IMG/VR virus record: IMGVR_UViG_3300033816_000195
Location: 1 to 64,000 of that record
Reading direction: 5' to 3' (one strand)
DNA: 64,000 bases
DNA from: a virus
Shown here: positions 3,664-49,313 of the stretch, in pieces
Layout of the letters: every line of letters begins with the position of its first letter
Numbering within the stretch: position 1 is the stretch's first letter
Program-made: the position numbers and the translations under genes
Notes under the pieces: model-generated
What the model was told of the DNA's origin: nothing
Databases searched by the model: none
What the model saw: the letters and a program-made list of their open reading frames with translations, nothing else

Positions 3664-3802
3664 AGCATACTTAGCAGGTGCTAATAGTATGTATTGTGGT
3701 TGTTATGAAAAACAATCTAAAGCAGATGCTGCAGATTGGTTCTATAATCAGTATGGAGAACAAGAGTCAGAGAAATGTGACTGTTGTGAAGAAGATGAAT
3801 AA
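3620..3802 (+). CDS. small hypothetical protein with CxC and CxCC motifs (start may be Met at 3629)
   Basis: Overlaps the end of the MazG-like gene and is followed directly by a terminator. Contains EAYLAG, YCGC and CDCC. Confidence 0.6.
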   Translation: MRKMHPVAFKKAMIEAYLAGANSMYCGCYEKQSKADAADWFYNQYGEQESEKCDCCEEDE

Positions 3803-3806
3803 TTTT

Positions 3807-3835
3807 AGGGGAGCCGTTTGGTTCCCCTTTTTTTT
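3807..3835 (+). terminator. Rho-independent terminator at the convergence of the replication and virion blocks
   Basis: AGGGGAGCC-GTTT-GGTTCCCCT followed by a T run. Confidence 0.85.
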
Positions 3836-3836
3836 C

Positions 3837-3977
3837 TTACCTACCCTGAGCTCTATAAGCTTTTTTATAGTTTTTAGACTTCTTAAGTTTTGAAGTCTTA
3901 GATTTTGCATGTACTCCTGGACGTGATACTTTGTTGCTTTTATAAGCTTTGACTGTTGATGTATTAGTTTTTGCCAT
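3837..3977 (-). CDS. 46-aa basic protein MAKTNTSTVKAYKSNKVSRPGVHAKSKTSKLKKSKNYKKAYRAQGR (absent from the ORF track)
   Basis: ATG at 3977 lies just after the stop of the 1150-aa gene, with TAA at 3837. The RPGVHAKSK…KKxYRxQGR pattern is one I recall from small phage proteins. Confidence 0.75.
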   Translation of the reverse strand: MAKTNTSTVKAYKSNKVSRPGVHAKSKTSKLKKSKNYKKAYRAQGR

Positions 3978-3983: not shown

Positions 3984-6900
3984 TTAATTAAAGAATGTAC
4001 TTTCAAATGATTTGACTGCTTCTCCTGGTGTAAAATTGTATCCAGAAAAACCCATTAGTTTTAGAAAATAAGCCCAAGATTTATTGTCTCCTTTGTTCCA
4101 AACTCCTGTATCTTTTTGATAACTTAATTTTTCTGGATTCCAAGTAAAAACAAACTGATCTGTAAATTTAATTGCTCTTTCTAATGTACCTGTCATTGCT
4201 GAAGGTGACTTTACAACCCTATATGCATCTATAGGATTAATGTATGAACTTGTTTCACTTCTCATCCTAACAGCCTCATACAAAACAAAATTATATAAAT
4301 AATTATCTCTAGCTGCTTTTTGAGATTCAGTTAATTTATCATCATCATCACCTGTACCCATCATAGATCTAATTAGCATGATAAGAGCTACAGTTGTTAA
4401 AATTATTGTAGCTTCTGCAATAACTCTTCTTATTTGTGCTTTTTCAAATGGAGAATAAGAAGCCCAGTTTTTCATTATATTAAACTTATAGTCTCTTAAA
4501 TCTCTAACAAAAGTTTTATAAAATGTCATATAATAGCCTTCAGTAGGTGCACCTAATTCTTGATCCATACCTAGCTTTTTCCATCTTTTTTTATAAGCTG
4601 GAACTAAGTGTTTTTTATACATTAAAAGTAATCTTCCTAAAGCTCCTCTTTGAGCTGTACCTTTATCAAATTCATTATAGACACCATGCATTCTTTTATT
4701 TAATGCATGTAATCTAGACTGGAAGTTTAGTCTTTGTTTTTCATCATAATTAAAAGCTATGTATTCTCCAGCATCATCTTTGATTGGTTCTTGGTTTACA
4801 TCTACTTGTAATATTTTTATTTTACCATCAAGTTCAACACCATACTTTTCATGAGCTTGTAATAGAGTTATTATTTCTCCATTTTCATTATCTAATACTT
4901 TAGTAGCATCCATTAGTGCAAACATAGTACTACCCTGTACTTCATGTTCACCAAAGAACTGATTAAAGAATAAAGTATTTGTACTAAATAATTTGTTCGC
5001 CATACTACCTGTAATGTTCCTACCATACTGGTCTTTAAAATTACCTTGTATAGCATCATAATAATCAAATAACTTGGTAGCTAAATTAGTTGGAGCAGAT
5101 TTACTAAAGTCTGAAATAAACCCAGGGACTGATTTAGTATAATAAGCTTTTCCTTTCATAAGATTTTTCTTATTAAAGAATTCTCCGGCATTTGCTTCTA
5201 TCATTACTTGAATATTAGCCTGCATATTATTTGCAACACCCTTTAATAAATCTGCTGCAATAGATGTAATAGCAGAATAACCCATTAAATTATTTACAAT
5301 TTTATCTATTTGTAAACCAAATAATTGTTCTGATTTTTGCATTTCTCCATATACAACCATATCTATAAAAGCATCCACATGTTTTTGAGAATAACTTTCA
5401 CCATTCTTTTTTATATATTCCTCATAACCTAATTTTTTTGCAAATGCATCTAACACAGGTTTACCAAGAGAATTAGTTTTTAAAACTTGTCTATCACCTA
5501 TAACAGTTTGGAATAAAGAAATTTCAGAGTTTATTTTATTTAATGCTTCGTATCTATTAGCCATTGAGTTAAATAACATTACAGATCTTGCTATATTTAA
5601 ACTCATATCTTCAGTAGGCATTATCTGTGTATAATACACCGGGATAAATTTTGCTTCTGTAATACCTAAACCAGCTAAACCATATTCAGTATCATAAGCT
5701 TGCATCTTTACAGCTTCTCTTGCTTTTGTTTTTACAGTTTTTATAATACCTTCTTGCTGTAATCTTTCACCATCAGTCTTTACTACTGAAGGTAGGATGT
5801 AACCTCTTCTCTGTACTTCCGGTAATTTTTCTTGCGCCTCTAAATATATATCTAACATTTTCTTATGGTACTCACCTTTTGCATTTTTAGGTGTACCATC
5901 TAAATTATATAAGGCTGTCCAGTTAGCATTTAAATAATCATTAGAAGGTTCAGATAACTCTCTCATATAAGTAACTACACCATTTCTTTCATGCTTTACA
6001 CTTTTTAACCAATCTGAATATTCATCATCAGTAATAATTCTTTTAGATAATTCAAGTTGTTTTTCTTCAATTATTTTATTTATTTCTGATATAGGTTTAG
6101 CTTGAGTGTTCTTTTTATACCAAGCAGCTCTTTGAGATCTCCAAGCTTTTAATGCTTGTTTTTCTTCAAATGTAGGTTTATCACTTAAAACAGGTTCTTC
6201 ACCTATTGCTTCAAGCATTTGATTTCTAGCTTTATTAAATTTGGTTACATCATATTTTTGTACAAAAGCATATGTCTTTATGTATTCAGTTTCACCATCT
6301 TTATTCTTAATAGGTATTTCTATAGTTTCATAAATACCTTCATTAAATTTAGCAGGGTTATCTCTATTGCTTTGTGTTCTTAAATAATCTTCAAAAGTTT
6401 CTGCTACAGTACGTTCCATTACTATATCCTTAAGACGGGCTTCTTCTAGTCCACCTTTAATAGCTTTAGCAAATAATCCTAGAGAAGCATCATGAGAACT
6501 AATTAAAGGCCCTACTAAGAAATCAAATACATCTTCATCTTTATTTGCTACTTTAAGCATTTTTATTAAACCTTCTCTATCTAAATTAAAAGACTTAAAC
6601 TTTTCTTTTCTTTCTTCTAATTCAGCTATTCTTTTAGCTTTCTTTTCATCACTTAAATTACTGTTTTCTATATCAGATATTCTTTGATCTAGTACAGTTA
6701 TATCTGATTCTAGCCTGTTAGTAATATCTGGACCTTTATACTCTAATAAAAAGTCTGCAATTAAGGGAATACCTTCTGTTAATACTTTTTGTTTAATAGT
6801 TTCATGTATACCTTTTATCTCAATAATTTTTTGTTGAGGCGTTAAAGGTTGTCCAGGAACTCTATTAGTTATACTATCTGCTGTAAAGTAATTATCTATA

Positions 6901-7436
6901 TCTGCTTTACTTATTTCATCTAGTATAGAATACCCATTAATAAAATCATTTATAGCAGATAATTTTCCTATTACTTCTTTAGGGTCTAGAGTTTCTTTAT
7001 TTTTTAAAAGATAAGCCATTTCTAAAGATGCCTTTCTGGATTTTTCATAAGCATCATCTACAAATAAGTAAATAGATTTAACACCTTCTGCAACCTTTAC
7101 TTCTTCAATAAGATCTCTAAGTTTTTTCTTTTTATATTCTTTATTAGTAATGACTTTATTTTGGAGAGTAGCATATTGTTTTTCAAGATATAATATCACA
7201 CTATCAACTAAGTTACCAAAATCTCTAGGGTCTGATTCTTCTTCATCAGTTTTTGCAGTTTCAGCTTCTTCAGCAAAGTCTTCTGTTTCATCTGAAAATG
7301 TAAGTGTATCTGGAGTACCATCATCTAGAAGATCTTGTTCTAACAACCAAGCTTCAAATGCAGCTGATTCATTACCATTAGCTTCTGCTAAAAGTCTTTT
7401 CCAATCTTCACTATCTTTATTAGGGCAGGCTAACAT
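3984..7436 (-). CDS. large virion cargo/ejection protein
   Basis: 1150 aa and mostly helical in character. Has an N-terminal CPN motif and a hydrophobic segment (IILTTVALIMLI) near the C-terminus. Overlaps the stop of the vRNAP gene. Confidence 0.7.
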   Translation of the reverse strand: MLACPNKDSEDWKRLLAEANGNESAAFEAWLLEQDLLDDGTPDTLTFSDETEDFAEEAETAKTDEEESDPRDFGNLVDSVILYLEKQYATLQNKVITNKEYKKKKLRDLIEEVKVAEGVKSIYLFVDDAYEKSRKASLEMAYLLKNKETLDPKEVIGKLSAINDFINGYSILDEISKADIDNYFTADSITNRVPGQPLTPQQKIIEIKGIHETIKQKVLTEGIPLIADFLLEYKGPDITNRLESDITVLDQRISDIENSNLSDEKKAKRIAELEERKEKFKSFNLDREGLIKMLKVANKDEDVFDFLVGPLISSHDASLGLFAKAIKGGLEEARLKDIVMERTVAETFEDYLRTQSNRDNPAKFNEGIYETIEIPIKNKDGETEYIKTYAFVQKYDVTKFNKARNQMLEAIGEEPVLSDKPTFEEKQALKAWRSQRAAWYKKNTQAKPISEINKIIEEKQLELSKRIITDDEYSDWLKSVKHERNGVVTYMRELSEPSNDYLNANWTALYNLDGTPKNAKGEYHKKMLDIYLEAQEKLPEVQRRGYILPSVVKTDGERLQQEGIIKTVKTKAREAVKMQAYDTEYGLAGLGITEAKFIPVYYTQIMPTEDMSLNIARSVMLFNSMANRYEALNKINSEISLFQTVIGDRQVLKTNSLGKPVLDAFAKKLGYEEYIKKNGESYSQKHVDAFIDMVVYGEMQKSEQLFGLQIDKIVNNLMGYSAITSIAADLLKGVANNMQANIQVMIEANAGEFFNKKNLMKGKAYYTKSVPGFISDFSKSAPTNLATKLFDYYDAIQGNFKDQYGRNITGSMANKLFSTNTLFFNQFFGEHEVQGSTMFALMDATKVLDNENGEIITLLQAHEKYGVELDGKIKILQVDVNQEPIKDDAGEYIAFNYDEKQRLNFQSRLHALNKRMHGVYNEFDKGTAQRGALGRLLLMYKKHLVPAYKKRWKKLGMDQELGAPTEGYYMTFYKTFVRDLRDYKFNIMKNWASYSPFEKAQIRRVIAEATIILTTVALIMLIRSMMGTGDDDDKLTESQKAARDNYLYNFVLYEAVRMRSETSSYINPIDAYRVVKSPSAMTGTLERAIKFTDQFVFTWNPEKLSYQKDTGVWNKGDNKSWAYFLKLMGFSGYNFTPGEAVKSFESTFFN

Positions 7437-10400
7437 AATTTTTTAAGTATTTCAGTTTCTATTTTTAACAAATCTTCTTGTGTTTTAGCTTTTTGTAAAT
7501 TTAATAATACATCATTAGCATCTATACCTTTTTCAGCTAAAATTTCATCTATAGGCATAGTATTACGTAAATTCACAAACTGATCTATTAAAGCTTTTCT
7601 TTTACTTTCATCTACAGGAGTAGTAGTTGATTGTTCAACTAGACCAGATTCCATATTTACATTTCTTAATAGTATAGTATTTTCATCTACAAGATCATAT
7701 AAGTTTCTAGAATTTTTAATCCAAGTTCTTGTACCAGTAGGTAAACTTACAATAAATTTATTTGGTAATACTCCATCATTATCAGTTAATGCTGCTTGGA
7801 ATACTTTCATATCTTCTTCTTGTATTGTAGGTGTTTTTGTTGGTTCTCCTGGTTTAACTTCTCCTACTGGTTCTACAGTAGGTTGAGTAGGTTTACTTCT
7901 AAGTTGTTCAACCACTTCTGCTAAAGCTGTAGGATGCATACCTTGACCTCTAGCTTCTAATTTACCAGCATATAATAATGTAGCTCCATCAAGTTTACCT
8001 TGATTAATTTGATTAAGTATCCAAGCTCTTTGGTTATCAAATTTAGCTAAGTCACTAACACTTCCTTCTAAAATTTCTGATTCAGTTACAGCATTGTTTA
8101 ATAACCAATCCTTATACATTCTAACAGCTGCACCTATACTAGCTACTTTTATAGTATTACCATAGCCTGCTTCACTAAAAGGATTACCAAAATGTTCATT
8201 AGGTTTAGCAGATTCAGTACGCATTGTATTAACTCCTTCTGCAGTATATACAAGTCTTGTTTTTAAATCTCCTGACCACTCTCTACTTAAATCTATTGTA
8301 GGTTTAACACTAGTAGATGGTTGAGTAGTAGCCTTAAATGTATTTTCATATACATCTCTAATAGCTTGTTTACCTGCTTCATTTATTTCTCTAGTTCCTA
8401 TACCTGCAAAGTTTTTAGTAAGAGTTGGAACTTCAGACTTAGACCATTCACCATTGATATTTTTATACCATTGATTTCTTACTTGGTCAAATACATATAC
8501 AGGTTTACCGGCTTGTATAGCCATTTCTACTGCGTAACCTGTTCCCCCCTGTACTGCAAATTTAAGAAGCTTTCTTGGTTCTGCAGATTTCTCATCTCCT
8601 TTCCAAATGTCACCTTCTTTACCTAATGTACCAATAGCAAACACAGTATCTGAATTAGCAACCTGAGCCCAATTTCTAATTAGTCTCTGGTCTTTCATTG
8701 TGTTGTATTTATAACCCCACATTTCTTTTGCAGCCTGAGCAACTTTACTTGCTCCTTCTACAGCTATTGGATTATTTGTAATGTCTACATTTCCTAATGG
8801 TGCATTCTTTGGTCCTTTTTCTCCGGTGAAGTAATGTTTGTTATTTACCATACCAAACTCTTTACCTATAACATCCCACTGAGTATCTGATCCAATTGCT
8901 CCACCTGAGTGATTAGTATATTCAGCTGGATTATTTGCTGTTACTGTAGATTGAGTAGAAAGTTTAGCTGGTGTTTTAGGCATTCCAGAAGTCAAATCAG
9001 CCGCTCTTCTAAATGTAAGAGTAATAGTATAATTAGTAATTACTCTACCGTCTGAAAGTTTAATAGGTGGAAAAGGATTCTTCTTTATATTTCCTAATGG
9101 TGTTGTGTGAGAGAGAGCAAATCTTCCTTTACCTTCCATACCAAATGTATATATAGTACCATCTTTAGTAGGGATTTCATTTGTAGGATTTCTACCTTGA
9201 TAGTCTTGTTTATATGCTCCTTGGAATGTTATTTTACCTTTATTATCATCCCAAATACCAAGACCTGAATCATTACCTATTGTATATACAATAACAGGAT
9301 AACCTTCAGCAGATTTAGCTTCTGTTGTATCTCTATGTGGAGCTATACTTTGATTATCTAAATATATATTTCCTAACATTGAATCATAATTAGACATATC
9401 AATACCTAAAGCATTTTGTATTTTATCAATAAGTGGTTGTAATTCTGATAAAGATGGAAGTGTATTACCATCCTGATCAAGTTCATGATAGTCATAAATA
9501 AACTTTGTTTTATCTGTATTTTTTCCTGCTTTCTTTAAAGCTTCTATTTGAGCTTTTGTTTTACTAATACCTGCAAAAGAATCTATAACTAAAGGATTTG
9601 CTTTAAGATTAACTCTTGACCACATATTTCCAAAACTAAACTGCCAGTTAGCATTACCACCTACGTTTTCTTTATAAGCTTGTTTTTCAATTTGAGGAGC
9701 AATTAAATTAATAATCTGTTGTGTATCAGATTCTGTAGGATTAGTTTCAGCTTTAACTACTCCATAATCTGGAGAGATAACTTGAACATTAGTATTTACA
9801 GGAGCTCCTGTAGGTTTAACAGAAGATTTAGGATATACCTCATCAGCTAATAACATCTTTTTACCAGTTGCTAAGTCTACATTTTGTATGTAAACTTCTT
9901 TTGTGGCATTATCTATCATATCATAATAACCATATGAGTTTAGATTCCACTGTGCACTTTCAGGCATAGTTTGTCTTTTACCCGTTACATTATTATAAAA
10001 TTCTGTAAATAAAGTTTTTGGAGTAAAGAATACTTTAGGTTTAATGTTATTACTCTTACTTAAGTATGTGTTATAAGAAGCAACGTCTTCTGCAGACATA
10101 ATAACAGGACCCTCTGATAAACCAGTTAATAAATCAAATGATTCTATAAATTCATCTTTTACTTCTTTAGCATGAGAACCTTTTAAAGGAACAGAATAGT
10201 TCTTGAACATTTCTTCACTTACAACAGTATCATATATTCTATTTAAAATTTTATTTGTATCCTCTGCAGATATAAAATAATTTTTAAAGAAATCATTTAC
10301 TGAACTACGCATTAATTCTTGATACTGTTCAGGATCTAAAGCTTTTGTAAATCCAAATTTAGTAGGCCCAACACCATGCTGATAAAACATCATTAATGAG

Positions 10401-13400
10401 AACTGATTAAATAAGTCTGATATTCTTTTATTTAATTCTGGATCATCAACTTTTTTAATAGTAACATCTCCTAAATTACGCAAGTTAGAGTAATATATTT
10501 CTGCTAACTGTCCTTTTACAAGCTTCTTATTATTTAATTGTAGAAGTTTTACATTAGCTCTTCTTGTTTCAGCAGGTGCAATCTGTGATAATATAGGGTA
10601 TTCTGATTTTACTTTATCTGATAAACCTCTTATAAGATCAAGTATAGTATCTGAATAACTATATTTAGTAGAGCCCATTATATAAGCTTTATTATAACTA
10701 CTTCTTAAAGCTCTTTCAGATAACCATGCTTCATATGCATCTTCAGGAATATTACCTAGTGTACTTAAAAACTCTTTATATGCTAAATCATTTTCTAAGG
10801 ATTCAATAGGATTTTTAACTCTTAACGCCTCTCTTTCTAAAACATATTTATAGTAACTATTTAAATTTAAGAAAGGATTTTGATTAGGTTTAAATACATC
10901 TAGACCTTGTTCTGCATAATTTCTAGCAGTAGTATTTCCTTCTAAAAATACTTTATTATTAAAGTCATCTTCAATAGCTTTTGTATTTACAATCATTACA
11001 CCATTTTCTACAATAGCATCAAAGTCTGCATTATCATCTATTAAAGTAGGAAAGCCTCCAACTTCAGGGCCTACATTAACTAATTTACCATCTTCATTTT
11101 GAAAATTAGAAATATAGTTTTGATATATAAAGTTAATTACACCATTATTATAAGCTTTAGTAAAGTTTTCTTGTCCCTTTATACCTGTTCCAAATTTTGA
11201 TTTTATAAGTCTTCTTTCCTGAACTATTTTATCTGATATAAAAGTACTGATGTCAGCATTTAATCTTAAAGGAAATAATGGTAATATTAAATCTAATATT
11301 AAATCATCTATATTAAATGAAGATACTACAGAGTCTTTAGTTAATCTTTCAAAGGTTCCATTGTCTATTTTACTAGACTGAGTAAGCATTTTATAATTAC
11401 TTTTTCTTTGTCTTACTTGTTGAGTTGTAGTTAATGTTGAAGTATCTGGAGCAAAAGACTGTTGTAAGTTATCCATTCCTTCAAATTGTTTTTCTAACTC
11501 AATAAAGTTCATGAATAAGGCAAGTGATTTTAAACTTGAACCATCATTTGTTGATATACCATCATATAAAGTTTCTAACTTAATATCACCTGCTGGTAAA
11601 TAAGTTTTTGATAAAACTTCTGTTGTAAAAGGAATTGTTGAATTATCTAATAAATCTCCTACCTCACTAGCAGATTTATATAGTATTTTATTATACTTAT
11701 CTTCTGATTGATTATAAAGAAATATCTTATCTACCTCAGTTATTTTTTTAGAGTTTAACTCATTTGCTAAATCATTTATTGATAGCAATCTTCCTTTATT
11801 TGCATTAGGGGTTATAACAAATACATTTTGATCTTCTAACTTTCTAACTGTATTAATAGCAGCTCTTAGTTTTTCACGGTTTACCTTATTTAGTAAATCA
11901 GTTTTTTGTCCATCATTTAATGTATCTAATATAGGTATTGCAATATCATATAGGGCTGTACTCTTAACCTTAGAAGCTTTTTGACCATTTATAATAGTAT
12001 AGTATGCACTATTCATTAATCTTTGGTCTTCCATGTATTTTTTAATCAAAGGTTGATTAACAAACATGAATACTTCTTCTTCATTTACTCCTGCTTGTAT
12101 TAAGTAACTAATTACATTAATACCTTCTGGAGTCATCTGTAGATCAAAAGGAAAAGGATTTTTTGCTCTATCTAATATACCATTAAGATTATGTGAGTTT
12201 AAGTCAGTAATTCTACTACCTTTTTGTGTTTTTTCTCCGGATAATGAAATTACTAATTCACCCTTTTCATTTTTAACTACATTATGTAAAAATCTCATTA
12301 CTAAAGGTAGCTCCAATGGTTTTATAATTAACTCACCTGTATCTAAATTAAAGAACTCATCTTTATATGTATTAGGCATTTTAGCTCCAATAGTTTTAAA
12401 TATAGTATGGTTCTTTGTTATTTTAGCTTGTATACCTAATGAAGGCTCTAAAGATAAATTAGCAGCATGTTTATACAAGTTATAGGTTGCCTCTAATAAT
12501 CTTGTAGGACTTATAACTGTTTTTCTTTTTCCATCTTTATCAGGAGCTGATTTATTAGGCTCAATATTTCCTGGGTTTTTATATCTATCATAACCACTTC
12601 TTGTTTTCTCTAAATACGGTATATATTTATCTACCAAGTGAGTCAAGTTTGGTGTAACTAGATATGCATAGTTTTCAGGAAGAGCTAACAAAGATGTATG
12701 AGTTTCAATATATTTATTTTGTAAATATCTTTTCTGTTGCTCTATTAATTGTTCAGAACTTATTTCAGGAAGTTTTTCAAAATCTTCTTTAGTTAATCTT
12801 TTATTAGAAGCTTTCTTTTCCTCAAACTGTTTCTCAAGTTCTTGAGCTTTCTTTAATTTATTTTCAAAATCAGGAATTCCTTTACTAATGTAATTACCAT
12901 CTTTATCAATGTTAGCCATTGCAAAGAAAAGTTTATCACCATCAAAGTCAGAACCAGCTTTAGCAACTATTTCTGTAGGAACAATAACAGTATTACCAAA
13001 TGCAGGATCTACAAAATGCCATACTTCAGCACCTTCTATAGTATTTGTAGCATCATTTGGAATTCTTGGTCCACCTATAGTAATTGCTTTTCTATTATTA
13101 CCTGTATTCAACCATTCCTCATCTTTGATAAGCTCATTAAGTCTTTCAATGGTACCTATTTTTTGACCTTTATATACTTGGTTTAAAAGATTATTATAAG
13201 AACCTTGTAAACTAATTGCTACTTTCATCATTTTTGTAGCTGCTCTTTCACCAGTTTCTTTATTTATAATCTCTCCTCTTAAATAAAAAGGTAGAGTGTT
13301 AGATCCTAATAATTTTTTTCTTTCTTCTGGATCGGTTACATTACTAAATTGTGTGTCCCACCAACCATTTGTAAATGATGTAGGTGCTTGTACCAGTGGT

Positions 13401-19400: not shown

Positions 19401-20392
19401 TTATCTCCAAATTCTTCTTTATAAGTACTTCTAGCAATTTCTTTTGGTGTAAGAATAGCATTCTCATTACTATAAATATTAGTAGTTACAAGTTTATTCT
19501 CAACTACTCTTACTGGTCTTAAGAATTGGTAAACAATTTTACCTTCATTTTCATTAGAAATATTACCGGCATCATCAAAGTAAAGTTGATTTCCTGCTTC
19601 ATCAGATAATATTAATACAACTCTTTCATTAATTTTTAAAACTCCTTCAGGTGTTTTAGCACCAATTGATCTAGCTTTTATAATTTCATCTTGAGTTGTT
19701 TCATCAAATAATGCTTGTCTATTTCCAGTAGCAAAATCATTTAAATTATAAGCTCTAAAGAATAGTTTTTTACCTTGATACATTACACCATCTGTAATAC
19801 TTTGATTGTTCATACTATTGCTTATAGAAGCCATTGTATTAACAATATGTATTTTATTTGGATCTATTCTTTCTACAACAAGTTCTTTAGAATTTTTTGC
19901 AGAAGGTTTTATTTTAACATATGATTGACCTGTACCTGTTAAAGGACTAAATGTTCTAAATCTTCTTGAAGGTATAACTGGTTCATTAATTACTGTTTCT
20001 TTTATTTCAATCTCATTTTCAGATATATCATCTGTATTTATACTAGCATTAATTTCATCAGCATTTACAGGCTTGTCAAATTGTTTTAGTACATTATTAA
20101 TACCATCTTCTGATCTAAAAGATACGTTTAATTCTTTTAATTTATTTACATCAATATTAATATTACTTTCAAAAAAATATGAAGTATATACACTTGATAT
20201 TAATTTAGGTAATGATGCAATGTATTTTGCTGCAGCTTCTGGTGAACCATTAGCTTTAAGTTCATTATAAAAATTTTGCATGAACTCATTTGGATCAAAA
20301 CTTCCTTTTTTTTCTGCCTCTTTTAAATTTGCAACAACATATGAATAAAGTGATTTTATTATCTCTGGATCATTTATAGCACATTGGATCAT
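7430..20392 (-). CDS. giant virion-packaged two-barrel RNA polymerase polyprotein (zincin domain + RNAP + AlkB-like, SLOG-like and DUF4326-like C-terminal domains)
   Basis: Catalytic GSDFDGDK at 12935-12949, preceded by RIP. Also DWSKR, EGDGMAY and HKFS-type motifs like crAss-family vRNAPs. HEAWH at 17891-17905. HRD…H…R motif near 9000-9340. Confidence 0.88.
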   Translation of the reverse strand: MIQCAINDPEIIKSLYSYVVANLKEAEKKGSFDPNEFMQNFYNELKANGSPEAAAKYIASLPKLISSVYTSYFFESNINIDVNKLKELNVSFRSEDGINNVLKQFDKPVNADEINASINTDDISENEIEIKETVINEPVIPSRRFRTFSPLTGTGQSYVKIKPSAKNSKELVVERIDPNKIHIVNTMASISNSMNNQSITDGVMYQGKKLFFRAYNLNDFATGNRQALFDETTQDEIIKARSIGAKTPEGVLKINERVVLILSDEAGNQLYFDDAGNISNENEGKIVYQFLRPVRVVENKLVTTNIYSNENAILTPKEIARSTYKEEFGDKQVYLDSIIKEQEEDLATLKKIQDAALRRKPSDAAYLLPITGMTNGVTTLDSATTISLENLITFPNQSKKIIETIETESKENGIVKQGGGTIRINGEQFPIDRMRINNDIAKQISEIIINSELTVQEKYDFIKQFIPIGMTKSVRNFDITYNFEKNSLFLNIYEKPNLINQIAKYNLSNTNLNNENTAKASEDLFNALTKGYKGYHTFISYDNDALRNNSYRVYKGGKTFERKSYYDLILAQNPNISLIENNPGFFNYSLQFNAPTGPAISNIVTDEQTQEPVDDEFIPVNTTTAADIEATRLYNIITSPEYTDQMARQGILGNEPFHLTKLLVNEIKNNPEYTKEFAREVLDSLINYFSQKQINYINSIIDNKVDGAEIKNGTDIIQNIVQPEAPQPHNNPTNSNKPDDLIDGLFRKGKNLDEKISAKKIKQSIDWWNSPGMKAMRDAIDLNPIMNIVNSDVYATFIVSAGTLANPDRLGKINYNVQKGSIFQNLTIYHEAWHAFSQLFLTPQQKTDLYNEMRSLKGTFTLENGETYSYSTAKIRQLEEKLAEDFRNYMKTEKPETKTPVKNTLFRQILNFLKALLGKILKKFNKKDVTIDALNSPMAKELFNNLRVGNLNSYTPLISNAQLFSLDRGVRNVENPREDILSKQDSTQLVSTIDSIIAEIIDERYQKYKNVPGAKAITIATLVETQRREILLNNVREVLENKLKTEKDKLNKLKPDFDFNGLSTLQNIKDYASAKLTNKKGDHKYVFLASQILDFSKLDPSLKKGERVKGESYAGTIKIVSDFYKHKEIKNENGKPVDIIVVSNLEDAEVQYNNYVEGKAKAYTGFELNQKALQPNLNLSDDQALILDNIRILQLALSNWGDNKTGVIKYYLENTDYEVAKKKYETDYTEILDGEDNAIDSTKVGKGVTRQEEINNDELKGKVSLQQLMSKETAYILKSLFKVDSQGKTPVDRFGFKQRADFSKIFNIVAKTIGGIRDRQKAYDALVREAEKFPEIKQLIESKYPEPNTRNTYEFDISRQFLQDFGKAKVKYMQLFATLNDNGEFDLQSVQASLSISSIQGRWISEFKSSPKTPYINKSANNVSSLNLNAIVSEFKEKSGNLKKSKSLEFAQAIGIGLDTNKNIISELDKNSDYYGLPYIFDAVIEFNELQLLEQAGETLTPLQKEYLDKFRLNPLETLKTTVPKDVFTGIIKEDFNENTQLRRLAELQGKYGYDSATAGVIRSNGNTGYEDINYSTYSARLDALNNVEKITDLWQDKQYSYMSYLDPTINTYTRHLKILNSIFDRYQENGDRKKGRYIEAIAVDGTNINDDLGNTTTELDDKSKFLQEIHSMLLAGWAELPRISEKKFSQGFRVIGGIENGLVLEKGADKNLYVDINMFFEGNKGENYAIVEYLSGYLEGEFDRIKKFKGSQRNELLKITGYNRVVDEVNGKKIYAGEVFSAFDTVLSRETKTKLYNLIEENINVNLRTSLKTDRELARLVSNDFKNYFNELVSNYSKTYYQDVPYLSESLLRKAGVKLSESPTSEELKAIRNNKTITDNIIKAYAYNDWIHKFETSIIMFGDFAQWDHAKEDWSKRIPGATSDGTGFLYDQGTQDFINNTFNAPYETENESGQNVKKLRTYAAIETAKTNGEINYDNYVFSDILNTAVIQDIERKSIYLDDMKAAWKEEFSKTYDNETAEYFTKLNAEAFEKMTEGDGMAYMTIDAYRALHKTGRGWSIAQENLYQKIINGEKVTQAEAAQYFPIYKLHYFGALKNDLIATTAMHKFSVMPLIPGVNAKEGSQLDKLHKKMLRENVQYVTFGSGSKAANLTSTGKLDNIFASDQQKAISDDVEFTLNPIYLANLKEVTVINDEFKGKLPIATQTRAIILDNLFENGEIKNKNNQQIIDSYLNTIKDYTKLLQSDLLNEIGYVYNEKTKRYEGNLKNFVEFIREELSAKDVPNHLVKLVNTTDDGQLTMDLSIHPESQDIEQLLMSVIQKRLIKQTTNGEPLVQAPTSFTNGWWDTQFSNVTDPEERKKLLGSNTLPFYLRGEIINKETGERAATKMMKVAISLQGSYNNLLNQVYKGQKIGTIERLNELIKDEEWLNTGNNRKAITIGGPRIPNDATNTIEGAEVWHFVDPAFGNTVIVPTEIVAKAGSDFDGDKLFFAMANIDKDGNYISKGIPDFENKLKKAQELEKQFEEKKASNKRLTKEDFEKLPEISSEQLIEQQKRYLQNKYIETHTSLLALPENYAYLVTPNLTHLVDKYIPYLEKTRSGYDRYKNPGNIEPNKSAPDKDGKRKTVISPTRLLEATYNLYKHAANLSLEPSLGIQAKITKNHTIFKTIGAKMPNTYKDEFFNLDTGELIIKPLELPLVMRFLHNVVKNEKGELVISLSGEKTQKGSRITDLNSHNLNGILDRAKNPFPFDLQMTPEGINVISYLIQAGVNEEEVFMFVNQPLIKKYMEDQRLMNSAYYTIINGQKASKVKSTALYDIAIPILDTLNDGQKTDLLNKVNREKLRAAINTVRKLEDQNVFVITPNANKGRLLSINDLANELNSKKITEVDKIFLYNQSEDKYNKILYKSASEVGDLLDNSTIPFTTEVLSKTYLPAGDIKLETLYDGISTNDGSSLKSLALFMNFIELEKQFEGMDNLQQSFAPDTSTLTTTQQVRQRKSNYKMLTQSSKIDNGTFERLTKDSVVSSFNIDDLILDLILPLFPLRLNADISTFISDKIVQERRLIKSKFGTGIKGQENFTKAYNNGVINFIYQNYISNFQNEDGKLVNVGPEVGGFPTLIDDNADFDAIVENGVMIVNTKAIEDDFNNKVFLEGNTTARNYAEQGLDVFKPNQNPFLNLNSYYKYVLEREALRVKNPIESLENDLAYKEFLSTLGNIPEDAYEAWLSERALRSSYNKAYIMGSTKYSYSDTILDLIRGLSDKVKSEYPILSQIAPAETRRANVKLLQLNNKKLVKGQLAEIYYSNLRNLGDVTIKKVDDPELNKRISDLFNQFSLMMFYQHGVGPTKFGFTKALDPEQYQELMRSSVNDFFKNYFISAEDTNKILNRIYDTVVSEEMFKNYSVPLKGSHAKEVKDEFIESFDLLTGLSEGPVIMSAEDVASYNTYLSKSNNIKPKVFFTPKTLFTEFYNNVTGKRQTMPESAQWNLNSYGYYDMIDNATKEVYIQNVDLATGKKMLLADEVYPKSSVKPTGAPVNTNVQVISPDYGVVKAETNPTESDTQQIINLIAPQIEKQAYKENVGGNANWQFSFGNMWSRVNLKANPLVIDSFAGISKTKAQIEALKKAGKNTDKTKFIYDYHELDQDGNTLPSLSELQPLIDKIQNALGIDMSNYDSMLGNIYLDNQSIAPHRDTTEAKSAEGYPVIVYTIGNDSGLGIWDDNKGKITFQGAYKQDYQGRNPTNEIPTKDGTIYTFGMEGKGRFALSHTTPLGNIKKNPFPPIKLSDGRVITNYTITLTFRRAADLTSGMPKTPAKLSTQSTVTANNPAEYTNHSGGAIGSDTQWDVIGKEFGMVNNKHYFTGEKGPKNAPLGNVDITNNPIAVEGASKVAQAAKEMWGYKYNTMKDQRLIRNWAQVANSDTVFAIGTLGKEGDIWKGDEKSAEPRKLLKFAVQGGTGYAVEMAIQAGKPVYVFDQVRNQWYKNINGEWSKSEVPTLTKNFAGIGTREINEAGKQAIRDVYENTFKATTQPSTSVKPTIDLSREWSGDLKTRLVYTAEGVNTMRTESAKPNEHFGNPFSEAGYGNTIKVASIGAAVRMYKDWLLNNAVTESEILEGSVSDLAKFDNQRAWILNQINQGKLDGATLLYAGKLEARGQGMHPTALAEVVEQLRSKPTQPTVEPVGEVKPGEPTKTPTIQEEDMKVFQAALTDNDGVLPNKFIVSLPTGTRTWIKNSRNLYDLVDENTILLRNVNMESGLVEQSTTTPVDESKRKALIDQFVNLRNTMPIDEILAEKGIDANDVLLNLQKAKTQEDLLKIETEILKKLC

Positions 20393-23300
20393 TACTGACA
20401 GTTTTTAAATTTATTAATTAAATCATTCTTTATATCCTCTACATTTGTTTCCATACCAATATTGTAAGCTTCTTGTTTAGCTTCATCAGATGCAAGGAAA
20501 ACATCTTGAGCATCAAAAGTTTCTTCTAAAATTTCTTTTTCAGCAGGAGATGTTGTATATGTTGTTTGTTTATCAGAAACATTATTTAACTCTGATTCTT
20601 TAACAAAATTATTTGAGAATTCATTTGGAGAGACTACCATTTCTTTTGCATTTTTTCTAGGTGTATTTTGTTTAGTAGCTAATTTTAACACAATGTTTCC
20701 ATTTTCTAATATCTCTGTTACCACCATTTTAGGGTTACCATCCTTATTAAGATAATAAATATCATTTACTTTTACAACACTTTCTCCATCTATTGTGGAA
20801 TCTATTGGATCAGCAAAAATATCTACTACATCAACAAAGCCTGAATCTAATCTAAAGTTAGCATTAAAATCTTTAACATCTTTAAGTTGACCTTGTATTT
20901 TTTGTATAACATTATCTTTTAAATACCTGTTACTTAATTGCTGTTCTAGACTACTTTGTAATGTATCTAAACTATTTACAGCATCTTGTATTTCTTGAGG
21001 TGTTGTAGCCTGAGAGGCATTAACAAATGTTTCTAAGATAGCTTTATCTTGAGCATTAGTATTATTTAAACTAATTAAACTAAAGACATCTCTTTGATAA
21101 TCTGAAAATGCTCTAGCAGCAACATCACTGGTTGTATTAACTTTTAAATACTGTATTCTTTTAACTGCTTCATGTATTATTTCAGATACTTCTTCTCTAT
21201 TAGGATTACCATTTTGTACAAGATCTATTTCTTCTGGAGTCAACACTCCTGTAGATAATGCGTCAATTGCTAGTAATTGTCCAGGAGTTGGAGCATAAGA
21301 AACTTTTCCAACAAATCTATCTTTGTGTACTTTAAATACATTAGCAAAAGCTTCATCTTTTTCTAGTTGTTGTTGTACAAAGTCAGAGTTTTCAGATAGG
21401 TCTATACTATCAAAGTTCTGAGTAATATTGAATTTACTAAGTCTTTCTTGAATAGTTTCTATTTGAGAGTCAATCTTCTTAGTACTATTTTCATATTTTT
21501 TAGTAAGAGTATTTAATTTATCTTTAGGTGATACAGTTTTAGATACACCAGATAAATCTATCATTTCTTCAACATACTCACCTGTTGCATCCTTATATCT
21601 TGTGATTGGGAAAAGAGTATTCATCTCATCTCTTACACTAGCAATATAAAGAGGAATCAGCATTTCTGAAACTTGTGCTGAATCTTCTATTTCAAACTCT
21701 TTAATACCAATAGAATTTTTTGATATTTTACCATCAGGGGTTCTTCTATAAATTAAAGGTTGATATATACCTTGAGCTGTAGGTTTTCCTGCAGTTAAAA
21801 TTTTTCCAGTTTGCGGATCAGAACTTCTTTGAACAGGTAATAAAGATATACTAGCATCAACACCAATCATTCTTTTTAATAAGGTTGCATAAGTAGCTTG
21901 TTGTAAAGTATAGTTTTCTCTTTTAGAATATATACCATCATCTTTTGTGGTGGCTGTTTTTTTAGTCTTTTTAATTCTATTAAACTTCAACCACTTATCT
22001 TCATTTCCTGTTTTAATATCTATGATATGTATTTTACCTTTTCTATCTACTGCTATTAAGTCAATTTCCCCGGCAATCCTATCTGTAGTACCATCTAGCT
22101 TTTCTATATTAGAATCATATACTACTAATCCTTTAGCTACTATATAAAGTTCACCATTATCAATTCTTCTTTTTATTTGGGTAAGGTGCCCATCTGGTCC
22201 AAATAAATCTAAGTAAGCTTTTTTAGTAATTTTATTAGGATCAAACTCCGGCATTTTACCTTCACCCAAGAAATCTTTTGCAGCTTGATCTACATAATTA
22301 CCAGCTTCTCTACCATCTTCATATGTTTTTTCTGATACAAACTTATATATCTTATTATATAAATCTTCATTGCTTATGTTTACAGGTTGAGTACTAGTAG
22401 TTTGTTCTGCAGTAGTAAGTCCTTTAGATTTATCATAGAGTTCTTTACTAGCCCAAATAGTTTTAGTAGCTTCATCAAAATATTCATCTTGTCTAAGATC
22501 TTTACCCCAAGTATCTTTTACTCTTTGTATTTCTTGATCATATGCTTCAGGTGTACTACTTCTTTGTTTGTCTTTTTCTAAAACATCAATCGTATTCTGA
22601 AGAGTACGTGGACTATACCATAAAAGATCTTGTTGTTTAAATTTATTTGCAATCTCTATAGACTTTCTTTGAGCTTGTTCAGGAGTAAGATTTATACCCA
22701 GTACTATACGCGCTCCTTTAACAGGACTATATTCATTATCTGATTCTTTAAGTTCATCAGCTATTTTTCTATTTTCTTCAGATAAACTATCAATTGCTAT
22801 TTCAATATAATCTTTTCCTCTTGAAGCTTCACCCTGTACAGAGTTTAACCAAGAACCCGTAGTTTTAATATTCTTATCCCAGAAAATTTCTGAAGCTGGT
22901 ACTAATGGTCCTGCTACAACATCTGCTATATTTTCTTTTTTAGAAATAGGTACAGCAAAAGTTCGAAAACCTGTTCTAGGTGCTTCAGTACTTACTGGAG
23001 CTTCTTCTAAAGCAGTTGGTTCTGAATCATATTTAGCGTTGATTTCATCAATTACTTGGTCTTTAGTGTATTCATTTTGAAACAATTCATAGTTGGTAAA
23101 TTTAGTTGCTTGACTACTAAATTGCCCTATATATTCCCAAGTCTTTCCACCATTGTACCCCTCTTTAATAGAAGCTATAGTTTCTTCCTTTTTTCTTTCT
23201 ATATCAGCTTTAGTATCTGTAGTAGTAGAGACAGGAGTTGTAGTTGGTTGTAAAATATTAGTTAATTCATCTGCTAGTTCTTCATATAATACATCTCTAA

Positions 23301-26300
23301 ATCCAGCAAGATCAGCTTGTTTAGCTAAATAAACAAAGCCTAGTATTGAAGACTCAGTTTCTGATAAAGGTTTTATTGTACCATCTTCTAATTTTTCTGA
23401 TACTTTAATATTATAACCACCTTCTGTAGGTACTAAATCTTTAACATAGTTTTTACCTTTAAAGGTAAAGTCTTCTGCTCCAGTATTTTCTTTAAGAACA
23501 TTACCACCAAAAGCAATTTGAAATATATCTTCTAAAACTGCTTTATCTGTATATTGGTAATCACTTGCTTCTACATCTTTTATAGCATTAGTAACCCTTC
23601 TATGGAAAAGATCATTTATTAAATAAGCTTTTTCTCCGGCCTTTAATCCTGTTACAGGATCATCTACCTTAAGTGTTTCTCCTGCTTTTACATTTTCCTG
23701 AAGTTTAATTAACTCTTCAATCTTTTTAATAGAAGCTTTTTGTTCTGGAGTATATGATTTATAAAGTTCTTCTTTAGTTTTTTGTGTTGTTTCTTCATCT
23801 TCAAAAATCATTTCAAGATCTAAGTCTTGACCAAAGAGTTCATCTTCTTCTTGACTTACTGGTTTTTCAGGTCTAAGAGCATTAAACTTAGTTAAGTACT
23901 CTTCAAAAATTTCATCATATTCAGTAGTACCTTCTTGATATACTTCATTAGCAGGTTCATTAAAGAACTCTTTTGGTTTAGTTCCATTTTTAATAAACTC
24001 TGCAAAGTCATCTACACTCATGTAGATACCTCTATCTGCTAAAGCATTTAGTAAAGAGTTTGCTTCTACAATACCTATTTGTTCAGTTACAATATCTCTA
24101 AAAATATTTTCTCTATTATCATAGAGAGACTTTAACCATTCTGTATTTCTTTCTACAAGTTTTAAAAATTCTTCCGGGTTATGTAGTAGGTTATTATACC
24201 TAACTAACTTTTTAGATTCTGTATCTAGTTTTTGGTGATCTAATAAATCATTAAATAAGTCATCTAATTTTTCATCAAATACATTATCATTACTAACATC
24301 AGCAATAGACTTTAAATATTTGTCTACACTTCTTTTATATGCTTGTATTCTTTCAGCTTTATTTACATCATCAAAAGCCCCTAAGTTTTTATCTATGGCT
24401 GCAATAACAGCCTCATCAGTTAATTCATCAGTTTTAATATTTCTTTTTTCAAGTTCTTTCTTCATTGATTTTTTAATCAACTCAAGATTTTCATATCTGT
24501 TAAAGAAATTATTAAATGTTTCTGTTTCATTAAATAACTCTGTGTAAGCTTCTAATTTTTTCTTTTTGTTTTCTAACTCTTTATTTAACTCAGGGTCTAA
24601 TGTACCAGATTTCTTTAAATCTTCTAATGATTTAATTTCATTTCTGATATTACTTATTTCTTTTCCTAATACTAAATTGTCTAATAAACTATTAACTTCT
24701 GTATCTGATATAGATGCAAATGGTTTATTAGCTGTAAGTTTATTTTTAATTCCTGCTTTTCTTTTTATAGCAGATTCAAAAGCTTCATTAAAGAATACAG
24801 CATTTCTCAATGCTACATTCCAACCTGTATAAAGTTGTACTTTAGCATTAAACTCTGGATCTTTTTCATTTAATGTATCTGGAGAAATTGGATTAGGATA
24901 TCTTTCTTTATAGTAATTATATCTTTTTTCTACAGTATCTATTCTGTTAATTATATCATCAAGTCTATTTAAATATTTTTGACCCTCACCTTTTTCTACA
25001 CCAGGAACTTCTTTTTCTATTTCTTCAGGAGTCATCTTCTTCATATCAGTCATCCTTTCTCTGAAGAGATATAAACTACCTGTTTCCATAGCAGTAGTTA
25101 CTTGACTTATAAAAGCTTCATCTGTAGCATCATAAGCTTGTTTTTTTGAACCTGTATTTTTAATATCTGCAGCCATATCCTGAACAGCAGTATTAAATAT
25201 TCTAGAATCATAAAATTGCTTTGGACCAAGACTGTTTAAATTATTTACAATACCATTAAGCATTTCTTCTTTTCTTGCTTTATATTCTTGGTATTCTGTA
25301 TTATTAAATAATCTGTTATATCCTACAGACAACATAGGTACTGCACTATTTAAAGGTGCTGCAAGCGTACCCATTAAGAAACCAGAAGCAAAAGTTTCAG
25401 CACCTTGTTCAGTAAACTGTTTACCAAATTCATCTTCATAATAGTCAAACTTAGTTTTATTTGCATAACCAGTTACACCTCTTGAATATAGATTCATTTT
25501 TAAAACAGAACTTTTAAAAGCATCTGTATAATATTTTTCATTTGCTCCAGCAATTATTTCTTGAGCATTTTCTTGTAAACCTTCAGTAAAATTAGATTTA
25601 AAATAACCTACAGTCTTACCTACACTTTTATATATAGGGTCTTTTGCCCAACCTTTTGCCCATGACATAAAATCATTAGACTGTCTAGCAAATTGTTTTT
25701 TAGTATTATCATAAACAATCTTACCTACAGTACCAAACTTACCGTTACCGGCTTTCATTACATCATCTATATTAGCTCTTACAAAGTTTCTTATACCACC
25801 TCTTGGACCTGTAATATTATTAAAGGTTATTTTATTTGATGCATATATTAATCCTGTATTCCAATATAAAGTATCTAATGAAGCTTGTTTAGCTGTAGAC
25901 ATTAATTTTTCTTGTACATCATTAGTAGGAGCTGTACCAAATTTTTCATAGTGAGCATTATACCCATCTTTATAAACTTTGTTTTCTACCATACCAGCTT
26001 CAAGCCTAGCTTCAGATAAAGCCATATTTAAGTTTCTTACATCTCTATAGAAACCTCCGGCAGTTCTAAATGTCTTAGCAAAACCAGTTAAGTTATCAGT
26101 AGCTCTTATACCTGTTATTGCATCTACAGTATTTTCTAAAGGATTTAAGAATCTTCCTATTTTACTAGTACCTGCAGCATTAGCTGCATTCCAAAACTTT
26201 CTTGCTGATTGAGAATTATTTAAAGCTTTAAGTGTATTACCTACTGCTTTACTAGCATCATATGCTGCATCAAAACCTTTTATACCTCTAAATAAAGAAG

Positions 26301-27117
26301 GTATTTTTCTTGCATTATTTGCAGTAGTAACTGCTGCTGAAGTACCACCCGTTAAAGGAGCTAATGCTAAACCAGCTACTTCTTCTACTATAGCTTCAGT
26401 AATAATACCAGCAGTGTAACCAAAGTTCATTACTGTATTATTTACAAATCCAAACGCTCCTCCTTTACTAGATGATCCTATAGCAGCTAATCTTTCATAT
26501 TCTTCTGCTCCTTCTAGGTCTGTTCCGGTAAAGTCACCTTGAATCATTTTCCATAAACTCTTAGGTCCATCAGTAAAACCTTTCCACACCATTGGTAAAA
26601 ATGAGTGTGACATCATTCTACTCCAATCATCTGCTTTAGTAGTTCTTGCATTAAATATAGCTTCATTATCCCTTAAAGGGTGAAAGCCTATTTTATCAAA
26701 TGTTTCTTGTCCATATGCTGCATATCTATCATAGAATGCTCCTCCACTTGGGCCAGCATTATAACTATATATTCTAGCATAATCTTCATTTGACTGTTTA
26801 CTTTGTATTAATGATTTTAAATAATCTTGTTGTGCATTCATTAAACCTTTTACATCTACCTTTCCAGGTTTAGGTGCAGATTTAATTATACCAGGATTAT
26901 TTACAATATTTTGTTTAATGTTAAAGTTAGGTCTTGTTAAATCTCTAACACCAGGCATACTAAAAGGATTAGGTGCCTGTGGAAAATTAATTTTAGGAGT
27001 ATCTATTTTATCACCTTCAAAAGGTAAATAACTATTAGCATCTGAACCAGGTCTATTAATACCACCAAACTCTGGACCTAAATCATCTAGAGGATTAAAA
27101 AGATTTTCTTCAGCCAT
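20392..27117 (-). CDS. giant virion cargo protein with PD-(D/E)xK nuclease domain
   Basis: 2241 aa. The N-terminal region has Gly/Ala-rich hydrophobic helices and an EGLQENAQ motif. Nuclease motif RIAGEIDL…IIDIKTG…YTLQQATY at ~21890-22080. TAATG overlap with the vRNAP gene. Confidence 0.75.
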   Translation of the reverse strand: MAEENLFNPLDDLGPEFGGINRPGSDANSYLPFEGDKIDTPKINFPQAPNPFSMPGVRDLTRPNFNIKQNIVNNPGIIKSAPKPGKVDVKGLMNAQQDYLKSLIQSKQSNEDYARIYSYNAGPSGGAFYDRYAAYGQETFDKIGFHPLRDNEAIFNARTTKADDWSRMMSHSFLPMVWKGFTDGPKSLWKMIQGDFTGTDLEGAEEYERLAAIGSSSKGGAFGFVNNTVMNFGYTAGIITEAIVEEVAGLALAPLTGGTSAAVTTANNARKIPSLFRGIKGFDAAYDASKAVGNTLKALNNSQSARKFWNAANAAGTSKIGRFLNPLENTVDAITGIRATDNLTGFAKTFRTAGGFYRDVRNLNMALSEARLEAGMVENKVYKDGYNAHYEKFGTAPTNDVQEKLMSTAKQASLDTLYWNTGLIYASNKITFNNITGPRGGIRNFVRANIDDVMKAGNGKFGTVGKIVYDNTKKQFARQSNDFMSWAKGWAKDPIYKSVGKTVGYFKSNFTEGLQENAQEIIAGANEKYYTDAFKSSVLKMNLYSRGVTGYANKTKFDYYEDEFGKQFTEQGAETFASGFLMGTLAAPLNSAVPMLSVGYNRLFNNTEYQEYKARKEEMLNGIVNNLNSLGPKQFYDSRIFNTAVQDMAADIKNTGSKKQAYDATDEAFISQVTTAMETGSLYLFRERMTDMKKMTPEEIEKEVPGVEKGEGQKYLNRLDDIINRIDTVEKRYNYYKERYPNPISPDTLNEKDPEFNAKVQLYTGWNVALRNAVFFNEAFESAIKRKAGIKNKLTANKPFASISDTEVNSLLDNLVLGKEISNIRNEIKSLEDLKKSGTLDPELNKELENKKKKLEAYTELFNETETFNNFFNRYENLELIKKSMKKELEKRNIKTDELTDEAVIAAIDKNLGAFDDVNKAERIQAYKRSVDKYLKSIADVSNDNVFDEKLDDLFNDLLDHQKLDTESKKLVRYNNLLHNPEEFLKLVERNTEWLKSLYDNRENIFRDIVTEQIGIVEANSLLNALADRGIYMSVDDFAEFIKNGTKPKEFFNEPANEVYQEGTTEYDEIFEEYLTKFNALRPEKPVSQEEDELFGQDLDLEMIFEDEETTQKTKEELYKSYTPEQKASIKKIEELIKLQENVKAGETLKVDDPVTGLKAGEKAYLINDLFHRRVTNAIKDVEASDYQYTDKAVLEDIFQIAFGGNVLKENTGAEDFTFKGKNYVKDLVPTEGGYNIKVSEKLEDGTIKPLSETESSILGFVYLAKQADLAGFRDVLYEELADELTNILQPTTTPVSTTTDTKADIERKKEETIASIKEGYNGGKTWEYIGQFSSQATKFTNYELFQNEYTKDQVIDEINAKYDSEPTALEEAPVSTEAPRTGFRTFAVPISKKENIADVVAGPLVPASEIFWDKNIKTTGSWLNSVQGEASRGKDYIEIAIDSLSEENRKIADELKESDNEYSPVKGARIVLGINLTPEQAQRKSIEIANKFKQQDLLWYSPRTLQNTIDVLEKDKQRSSTPEAYDQEIQRVKDTWGKDLRQDEYFDEATKTIWASKELYDKSKGLTTAEQTTSTQPVNISNEDLYNKIYKFVSEKTYEDGREAGNYVDQAAKDFLGEGKMPEFDPNKITKKAYLDLFGPDGHLTQIKRRIDNGELYIVAKGLVVYDSNIEKLDGTTDRIAGEIDLIAVDRKGKIHIIDIKTGNEDKWLKFNRIKKTKKTATTKDDGIYSKRENYTLQQATYATLLKRMIGVDASISLLPVQRSSDPQTGKILTAGKPTAQGIYQPLIYRRTPDGKISKNSIGIKEFEIEDSAQVSEMLIPLYIASVRDEMNTLFPITRYKDATGEYVEEMIDLSGVSKTVSPKDKLNTLTKKYENSTKKIDSQIETIQERLSKFNITQNFDSIDLSENSDFVQQQLEKDEAFANVFKVHKDRFVGKVSYAPTPGQLLAIDALSTGVLTPEEIDLVQNGNPNREEVSEIIHEAVKRIQYLKVNTTSDVAARAFSDYQRDVFSLISLNNTNAQDKAILETFVNASQATTPQEIQDAVNSLDTLQSSLEQQLSNRYLKDNVIQKIQGQLKDVKDFNANFRLDSGFVDVVDIFADPIDSTIDGESVVKVNDIYYLNKDGNPKMVVTEILENGNIVLKLATKQNTPRKNAKEMVVSPNEFSNNFVKESELNNVSDKQTTYTTSPAEKEILEETFDAQDVFLASDEAKQEAYNIGMETNVEDIKNDLINKFKNCQ

Positions 27118-49312: not shown

Positions 49313-49313
49313 A

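Follow-up and report, generated by a model that had tools for sequence, protein, structure and literature searches.

Among the phages of the human gut crassviruses are the most abundant, and it is an open question how a narrow tail allows them to deliver about 700 kDa of protein. The question takes a particular form in a 64,000-nucleotide (nt) stretch of viral DNA (positions 1 to 64,000 of the IMG/VR virus record IMGVR_UViG_3300033816_000195; hereafter the window). Three adjacent giant genes of this window, here called A, B and C, encode proteins of 2241, 4320 and 1150 amino acids (aa), in which cysteine (Cys) is found only at the ends that face a neighboring gene product. What are cysteines doing at the junctions and nowhere else? 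The analysis described below points to a pairing of the facing ends, probably by disulfides.

A script count over the 7,711 residues of A, B and C returned four cysteines in total, Cys2240 of A, Cys4 and Cys4320 of B and Cys4 of C, with none at an internal position. The first inspection of the translations (the sequence-only reading) had claimed a sole Cys at the C-terminal end of the 2241-aa protein, cysteines only at position 4 and at the last residue of the 4320-aa RNA polymerase, and one only at position 4 of the 1150-aa protein; all of this was confirmed by the count. The two junction overlaps that it had given, TAATG (20390-20394) and ATGTTAG (7430-7436), were found in the DNA as described. 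In the second, the TGT that encodes the last Cys of B (7433-7435) shares bases with the start codon of C (ATG, 7434-7436). If the four cysteines were placed at random, each junction-facing end would have one within four residues with a probability of 24 x (4/7711)^4, about 2e-12. The terminal placement is neither chance nor an artefact of gene overlap.

On the basis of sequence comparison, we assign A, B and C to a distant crAss-like phage, as its particle-borne RNA-polymerase module, because B and C give gp50- and gp49-type matches and A a weak gp47-type one, B has a DFDGD catalytic motif, and genes for a major head protein and a DNA polymerase are present as well. The source record, from IMG/VR, is 73.5 kb long, with an estimated completeness of about 62%. 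In BLASTP against a six-protein database, B matched gp66 of phi14:2 with an expect value (E) of 9e-13 and gp50 of crAss001 with E 6e-6, while A gave a weak match to crAss001 gp47 (E 1.6e-8 over 168 residues). C is more easily recognized; tblastn with C matched 84 phage records, crAss001 among them at E about 1e-54, the proteins hit being the "RNA-polymerase subunit" of crAss001 (gp49) and gp65 of phi14:2, and the BLASTP value against gp49 was 1.3e-59. Searches of Pfam and PHROGs gave nothing above threshold for A, B or C. Below threshold, residues about 3616-3968 in the C-terminal extension of B (window 7430-9550, minus strand) showed a weak match to the 2OG-Fe(II) oxygenase family PF13532 (23.9 bits, cut-off 31.2 bits) and a weak match to a DprA-like PHROG (E 1.4e-4). 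A lipoprotein-like signal was considered for the start of C, as MLAC resembles a lipobox, and dropped, there being no hydrophobic leader before the Cys and the preceding residues being variable. The features are collected in Table 1.

Table 1. Positions in the window of the cargo genes, their terminal Cys codons and associated features (ORF, open reading frame; HMM, hidden Markov model)
Feature	Position	Strand	Basis
Gene A, 2241 aa; weak homologue of crAss001 gp47 / phi14:2 gp67	20392..27117	minus	ORF listing
Gene B, 4320 aa; homologue of virion-type two-barrel RNA polymerases, with a long extension at either terminus	7430..20392	minus	ORF listing, BLASTP
Gene C, 1150 aa; homologue of crAss001 gp49 / phi14:2 gp65	3984..7436	minus	ORF listing, tblastn, BLASTP
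TGT codon of A Cys2240 (sole Cys; ...KFKNCQ-stop), two residues from the C-terminal end	20398..20400	minus	
TAATG, stop of A overlapping start of B by one base	20390..20394	minus	junction sequence checked
TGT codon of B Cys4 (MIQC...)	20381..20383	minus	
B residues 827-920, homologous to a domain near the C-terminal end of A in Steigviridae and inside the Suoliviridae A-B fusion	17633..17914	minus	BLASTP + HMM
DFDGD catalytic motif of B, residues 2482-2486	12935..12949	minus	
TGT codon of B Cys4320, last residue (...KKLC-stop), overlapping the ATG of C	7433..7435	minus	
TGC codon of C Cys4 (sole Cys; MLACPN...)	7425..7427	minus	
Upstream 1077-aa ORF, zero Cys; Cys-free context, no sign that it is part of the chain	27120..30353	minus	

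The cultured homologues of A, B and C, namely gp47, gp50 and gp49 of crAss001 and gp67, gp66 and gp65 of phi14:2, carry the same terminal Cys pattern at about 25% identity. In crAss001, the only Cys of gp47 is residue 2339 of 2341, gp50 has cysteines at 5, 1334 and 2404 of 2412, and gp49 has one at 5 only. In phi14:2, the only Cys of gp67 is the last of its 1797 residues, gp66 has cysteines at 3 and 2179 of 2180, and the only one of gp65 is at 3. The window differs from these phages in the size of B (4320 aa vs 2180-2412 aa) and in the location of the A/B break, and the identity is about 22-28%. In genomes of the crAss001 type, the A gene (gene 47 of crAss001) is found on the other strand, and its product nevertheless keeps the C-terminal Cys; gene overlap or coupling signals therefore cannot explain the residue. 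The same fact shows that gene order, in which the sequence-only reading had the proteins linked, is not essential.

All three crAss001 proteins, gp47 (262 kDa), gp49 (155 kDa) and gp50 (277 kDa), were detected in the particle by mass spectrometry, for which data from both reduced and unreduced virions exist (PMC10172136), and the record annotation of phi14:2 describes the homologues as packed in the particle. By homology to these proteins, A, B and C of the window are likely to be packed as well. Disulfides do occur in crAss001 particles, in the tail and the portal vertex, and Extended Data Table 2 of the same paper concerns, by its title, disulfides stabilising the tail assembly (PMC10172136).

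The check proposed in the sequence-only reading, conservation of the terminal cysteines in orthologous gene trios, was carried out by a survey of 262 sources, i.e., 261 loci from IMG/VR and named phage records plus the window. Open reading frames (ORFs) were taken from the first ATG, 41 loci being read with TAG as glutamine (Gln). Those of at least 500 aa were classed by BLASTP against labelled references, and dereplication was based on shared 5-mers. The junction count left out pairs more than 200 nt apart, ORFs that were shorter than 500 aa or truncated where a locus ends, and gp38 of phage phi17:2, which matched no class. Under these rules 211 same-strand adjacent pairs gave 43 junction clusters, 42 of them real gene breaks. 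Paired cysteines were present at 41 of the 42 on a strict count, and at all 42 when the crAss002 type is started at Met33. The 43rd cluster, an A|A pseudo-break, falls within a broken gene and lacks Cys. In 35 of the 42 real clusters the upstream Cys is 0-5 residues from the end; five others have it 8 residues away, and single clusters have it at 11 and at 22. On the downstream side, the Cys is found at position 3-6 in the clusters with Cys on both sides. Counted by protein type, a Cys is present among the last 4 residues in each of the 25 A-type clusters and at position 3-6 in each of the 28 C-type clusters. The Cys4 of C is one of 8 invariant columns in an alignment of 14 sequences at 16-25% identity, apart from one close relative at 90%. 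The C-terminal regions of B could not be aligned beyond close relatives (7-19% identity).

The outer ends of the block behave differently. No Cys was present within 25 residues of the end in any of 30 outer N-termini and 31 outer C-termini. The base rate was obtained from 199 other ORF clusters of the same loci, where the first 8 residues included a Cys in 10 clusters and the last 10 residues in 29. The survey thus supports the view that the terminal Cys is a conserved and selected feature, one which appears to pair the C-terminal end of one cargo protein with the N-terminal end of the next.

Further evidence comes from lineages in which two of the three genes are fused. In Intestiviridae and the cyanophage Lbo-JY46, B is fused with C (A|BC; examples are crAssphage LMMB, crAss002 and cr271_1). 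The cysteines at the C-terminal end of A and the N-terminal end of BC are kept, and no Cys was found at the C-terminal end of BC or in the estimated joint zone (2220-3105 in LMMB; 2140-3119 in crAss002). In Suoliviridae, A is fused with B (AB|C; cr118_1, cr50_1, cr55_1 and cr4_1). Here the C-terminal end of AB and the N-terminal end of C keep their cysteines, the N-terminal end of AB has none, and the nearest internal Cys is more than 100 residues from the estimated joints.

The window itself provides a case in which the break has moved. A hidden Markov model (HMM) of 13 A C-terminal regions matched B residues 827-920 (E 1.5e-8) and, in a relative at 51% identity, residues 893-1009 (E 7.7e-11), among 19 targets in both cases (hmmsearch --max). 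In Steigviridae this domain sits 130-230 residues before the end of A, so the A/B break is elsewhere in the lineage of the window. It lies about 1,000 residues from its location in crAss001, and the Cys pair sits at the break. Relatives at 51-55% identity end A with ...NKKIC and start B with MAITC..., where the window has ...KNCQ and MIQC.... Taken together, the fused and the moved junctions support the conclusion that Cys pairs follow real gene breaks and are missing at fused joints, as far as joints can be estimated from sequence. The window adds to the sample its largest B, of 4320 aa, and a clear moved-break case.

A few gene structures met in the survey are recorded here in their own right. 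The annotated start of gp33 of crAss002, a 4245-aa fusion protein, is probably 32 codons early (L085 9270-9368); a start at Met33 would read MSCTPS..., and the ORF of one relative does begin at that point. In cr116_1 (L090 15566-16407) the polymerase gene is broken inside the DFD motif by an insert encoding a 215-aa LAGLIDADG-like ORF, and the end of its "B1" was rejected as a protein end since it is read-through into this insertion. In six other loci (L010, L012, L022, L035, L048 and L074) the polymerase gene is interrupted by an insert of about 920 nt after ...KLIGYRV. These interruptions look like introns with homing endonucleases, and there is no Cys pair at those breaks. The split of B in IAS virus was likewise not taken as a real break; in this record, which contains ambiguous bases, a frameshift seems to be the cause. 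In 41 of the 262 sources (e.g., L086, which is cr4_1, and L124-L181) many Suoliviridae-type giant genes are open only when TAG is read as a residue. The AB gene of cr4_1 has 38 in-frame stops under table 11 and is open with TAG as Gln.

Precedent for a bond between the ends of ejection proteins is found in cyanopodophage A4 (Anabaena phage A-4L). In the pre-ejectosome, solved inside the capsid by cryo-electron microscopy, Cys1715 of gp27 forms a disulfide with Cys5 of gp26 (PNAS 2025, PMC12002296). In the A-4L record these two are the sole cysteines of proteins of 1717 aa (gp27) and 1114 aa (gp26). Four other Saffermanviridae at 23-27% identity, Pf-WMP3, Pf-WMP4, CHP58 and TR020, have a Cys 1-2 residues from the C-terminal end of the gp27 homologue and one at position 5 or 8 of the gp26 homologue. 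A4 resembles the window in having large all-helical ejection proteins (PMC12002296) that are products of adjacent genes and have a sole Cys at the facing ends. The window displays the A4-type sequence feature, a lone Cys at the upstream C-terminal end and one at position 3-8 downstream. Since A4 and its relatives carry a window-like signature, the signature seen here is that of an observed bond. A4 differs from the window in having two proteins only, without an RNA polymerase, and in being a member of Saffermanviridae with a cyanobacterial host. In its consulted parts, the A4 paper reports the one bond and states no rule on gene breaks or fusions (PMC12002296).

Outside Crassvirales, Cellulophaga phage phi17:2 (Lightbulbvirus; L093 7942-21446) shows a comparable arrangement. 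The sole Cys of its A-like gp39 is the last residue, the sole Cys of its C-like gp36 is at position 3, and the middle protein, gp38, has cysteines at 4 and 516 of 517. The middle protein is unlike B of the window in being 517 aa long and without a polymerase match, and a 119-aa ORF with two cysteines lies between gp38 and gp36.

The N4-like phages (Schitoviridae) provide a further comparison. The sequence-only reading had stated that ejected virion proteins are depleted of Cys, and this is published for the N4-like phages, where they are nearly Cys-free (0.00075% in gp71 homologues) and where it was proposed that Cys avoidance prevents disulfide formation during passage through the periplasm (PMC11445570). 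Like the window, Schitoviridae have a giant particle-borne RNA polymerase and ejection partners almost without Cys; unlike it, they have essentially none, and so no terminal pairs (PMC11445570). Their polymerase is T7-like and single-subunit, whereas B of the window is of the two-barrel DFDxD type, gp66-like, with two terminal cysteines. Given the DFDxD motif and these cysteines, the block was not classed as an N4-like ejection operon.

From the terminal pairs and the analogy with A4, we consider it probable, with some reserve, that two inter-chain disulfides join A, B and C into one thread inside the particle. The bonds would be A Cys2240-B Cys4 and B Cys4320-C Cys4, giving a head-to-tail thread of about 7,700 residues. 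As each Cys is within a few residues of a chain end, the joint would stay thin, possibly thin enough to pass the tail channel with partly unfolded proteins. Internal cysteines would have been purged, and wrong cross-links and periplasmic oxidation would thereby be avoided. At a gene break the disulfide would do the job that a peptide bond does in the fused lineages. The proteins would pass as one thread, in fixed order and stoichiometry, and would be released by reduction in the cytoplasm. A disulfide between ejection proteins is already known from A4; what would be new here is a chain of three proteins, with the polymerase in the middle, that follows the gene breaks. A wider generalization seems to us possible but rather doubtful, namely that disulfide and peptide bond are interchangeable across Crassvirales and at least two other phage groups, that a Cys pair appears wherever the A-B-C break is cut or moved, and that the whole block of about 7,700 residues, with the polymerase, is threaded into the host as one strand and then dismantled by reduction in the cytoplasm.

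Several points weigh against the disulfide thread. Particle assembly takes place in the cytoplasm, which is reducing, and the crassviruses of the gut live in the absence of oxygen, so that formation of the bond needs explaining. No thioredoxin match was found in the 73.5-kb record, about 62% complete; the search for an Erv-type oxidase (Evr1_Alr) was uninformative, as no control genome matched. The A4 proteins gp26 and gp27 gave no BLASTP match to A, B or C at E 0.01, and the alignment of C against A4 gp26 reached an hhalign probability of 0.07%. Homology of C to gp26 is not supported by these results, and in view of the lack of detectable similarity to A, B and C the A4 precedent is an analogy rather than a demonstrated homology. 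A sequence search of the PDB returned nothing related to gp47 or to the C family. The clusters counted in the survey are mutually related, and one search pattern held the N-terminal Cys peptide of C and another the C-terminal peptide of A, which biases those two samples. Internal cysteines exist in many relatives, 296 in 226,076 internal residues (0.13%); the claim of "Cys only at ends" thus stands for the window but is not universal. In Steigviridae the C-terminal Cys of B is 8 residues from the end, and in two Suoliviridae-type clusters, read with TAG as Gln, it is 11 and 22 residues from the end. The distant cases are L165 (22 residues), L147 (11) and L162 (10), the last being outside the junction pair count with an ORF that overlaps the start of the next gene. 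Finally, sequence alone cannot assign which Cys pairs with which.

Structure prediction was of little help. The AlphaFold2 model of C, built on a 14-row alignment, was poor (mean predicted local distance difference test score, pLDDT, 49.1; predicted template modelling score, pTM, 0.33). A Foldseek search of the PDB with this model gave no match at E <= 0.001, which says nothing either way. Complex prediction for C residues 1-700 with the last 150 residues of B gave no answer (score 0.00) and speaks neither for nor against binding.

The same ends might meet through a different chemistry, i.e., a bridging metal ion, or a thiol-dependent contact that strengthens non-covalent docking of C-terminal helices. 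The low-redox setting of gut phages would suit such a contact, and paired conservation shows a joint function of the ends without specifying the bond between them. We nevertheless find this unlikely. There is one Cys per end, no conserved histidine was seen beside it in the terminal peptides inspected, the fusion lineages have just two terminal cysteines, and the sole solved case is a disulfide (PMC12002296). A shared metal site, the alternative offered in the sequence-only reading, is disfavoured on the second and third of these grounds, and a single four-Cys metal site joining A, B and C is unlikely because the fusion lineages have two terminal cysteines only.

The disulfides might also be paired differently, which appears to us quite improbable. 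Cys4 and Cys4320 of B could close a ring while A is linked to C, or copies of the same protein could be bonded, so that rings or dimers would form and no A-B-C thread. A4, in which two non-polymerase ejection proteins are linked directly (PMC12002296), lends this some weight, as does the ambiguity of partners noted above. The fusions argue otherwise: in A|BC the C-terminal end of A is left with only the N-terminal end of the B part, and in AB|C the N-terminal end of C is left with only the C-terminal end of the B part. As the fusion lineages leave only the pairs of the thread possible, the thread is favoured. The 517-aa middle protein of phi17:2, with a Cys at both ends (4 and 516), also stands against a different pairing.

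Equally improbable in our estimate is that each terminal Cys has its own job, such as attachment to another part of the particle or a packaging or processing signal, and that the pairing is only apparent. No contact between crassvirus ends is demonstrated here, which leaves room for such roles. However, independent jobs predict neither the outer ends without Cys (0/30 and 0/31), nor the Cys on both sides of every real break that moves with the break, nor its absence from the estimated joint zone of the fusions checked, and the explanation is disfavoured on this account. That the cysteines are a by-product of gene overlap, translational coupling signals or relaxed selection at chain ends, as the overlap of the last Cys codon of B with the ATG of C might suggest, is hardly credible and overlap as an artefact is rejected, because they persist without overlap (gaps of +1 to +169 nt) and with A on the other strand, and the flanking residues vary while the Cys stays against a base rate of 5-15% at other protein ends.

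The surroundings of the block are recorded for completeness. Upstream of the block, three giant ORFs of 1077, 1602 and 1339 aa contain no Cys, and most other ORFs of the window, those of the tail region further along among them, have 1-11% Cys. Amid the Cys-free giants lies a 735-aa ORF (30418-32625, minus strand) with exactly four cysteines arranged as CxC...CxC (444, 446, 463 and 465). They are kept in relatives at 51-55% identity and look like a small metal site. Cys-rich ORFs adjoin the Cys-free block at window 47014-56047 (minus strand), one of 785 aa with 61 cysteines (7.8%), one of 468 aa with 20 and one of 81 aa with 9; the two tested among them had no match in PHROGs.

Literature searches returned no paper stating an end-Cys rule for crassviruses; the gp66 study was covered in its bioRxiv version only, and the supplements of PMC10172136 and PMC12002296 may bear on the claim. 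The word "cysteine" is absent from the main text of the 2023 crAss001 paper (PMC10172136). The 2020 bioRxiv preprint on gp66 reports fusion of the three proteins in some phages, and the terms "cystein", "Cys", "disulfide" and "disulphide" are absent from its consulted text.

The end-Cys rule helps annotators to find the true starts and ends of giant genes, Met33 of crAss002 being an example. The thread reading is directly testable on cultured phages (crAss001, phi14:2 and DAC15). If true, a covalent thread would account for how delivery is ordered and its stoichiometry set, for the extreme avoidance of Cys in A, B and C, and for the freedom with which these genes have been fused and split in evolution.

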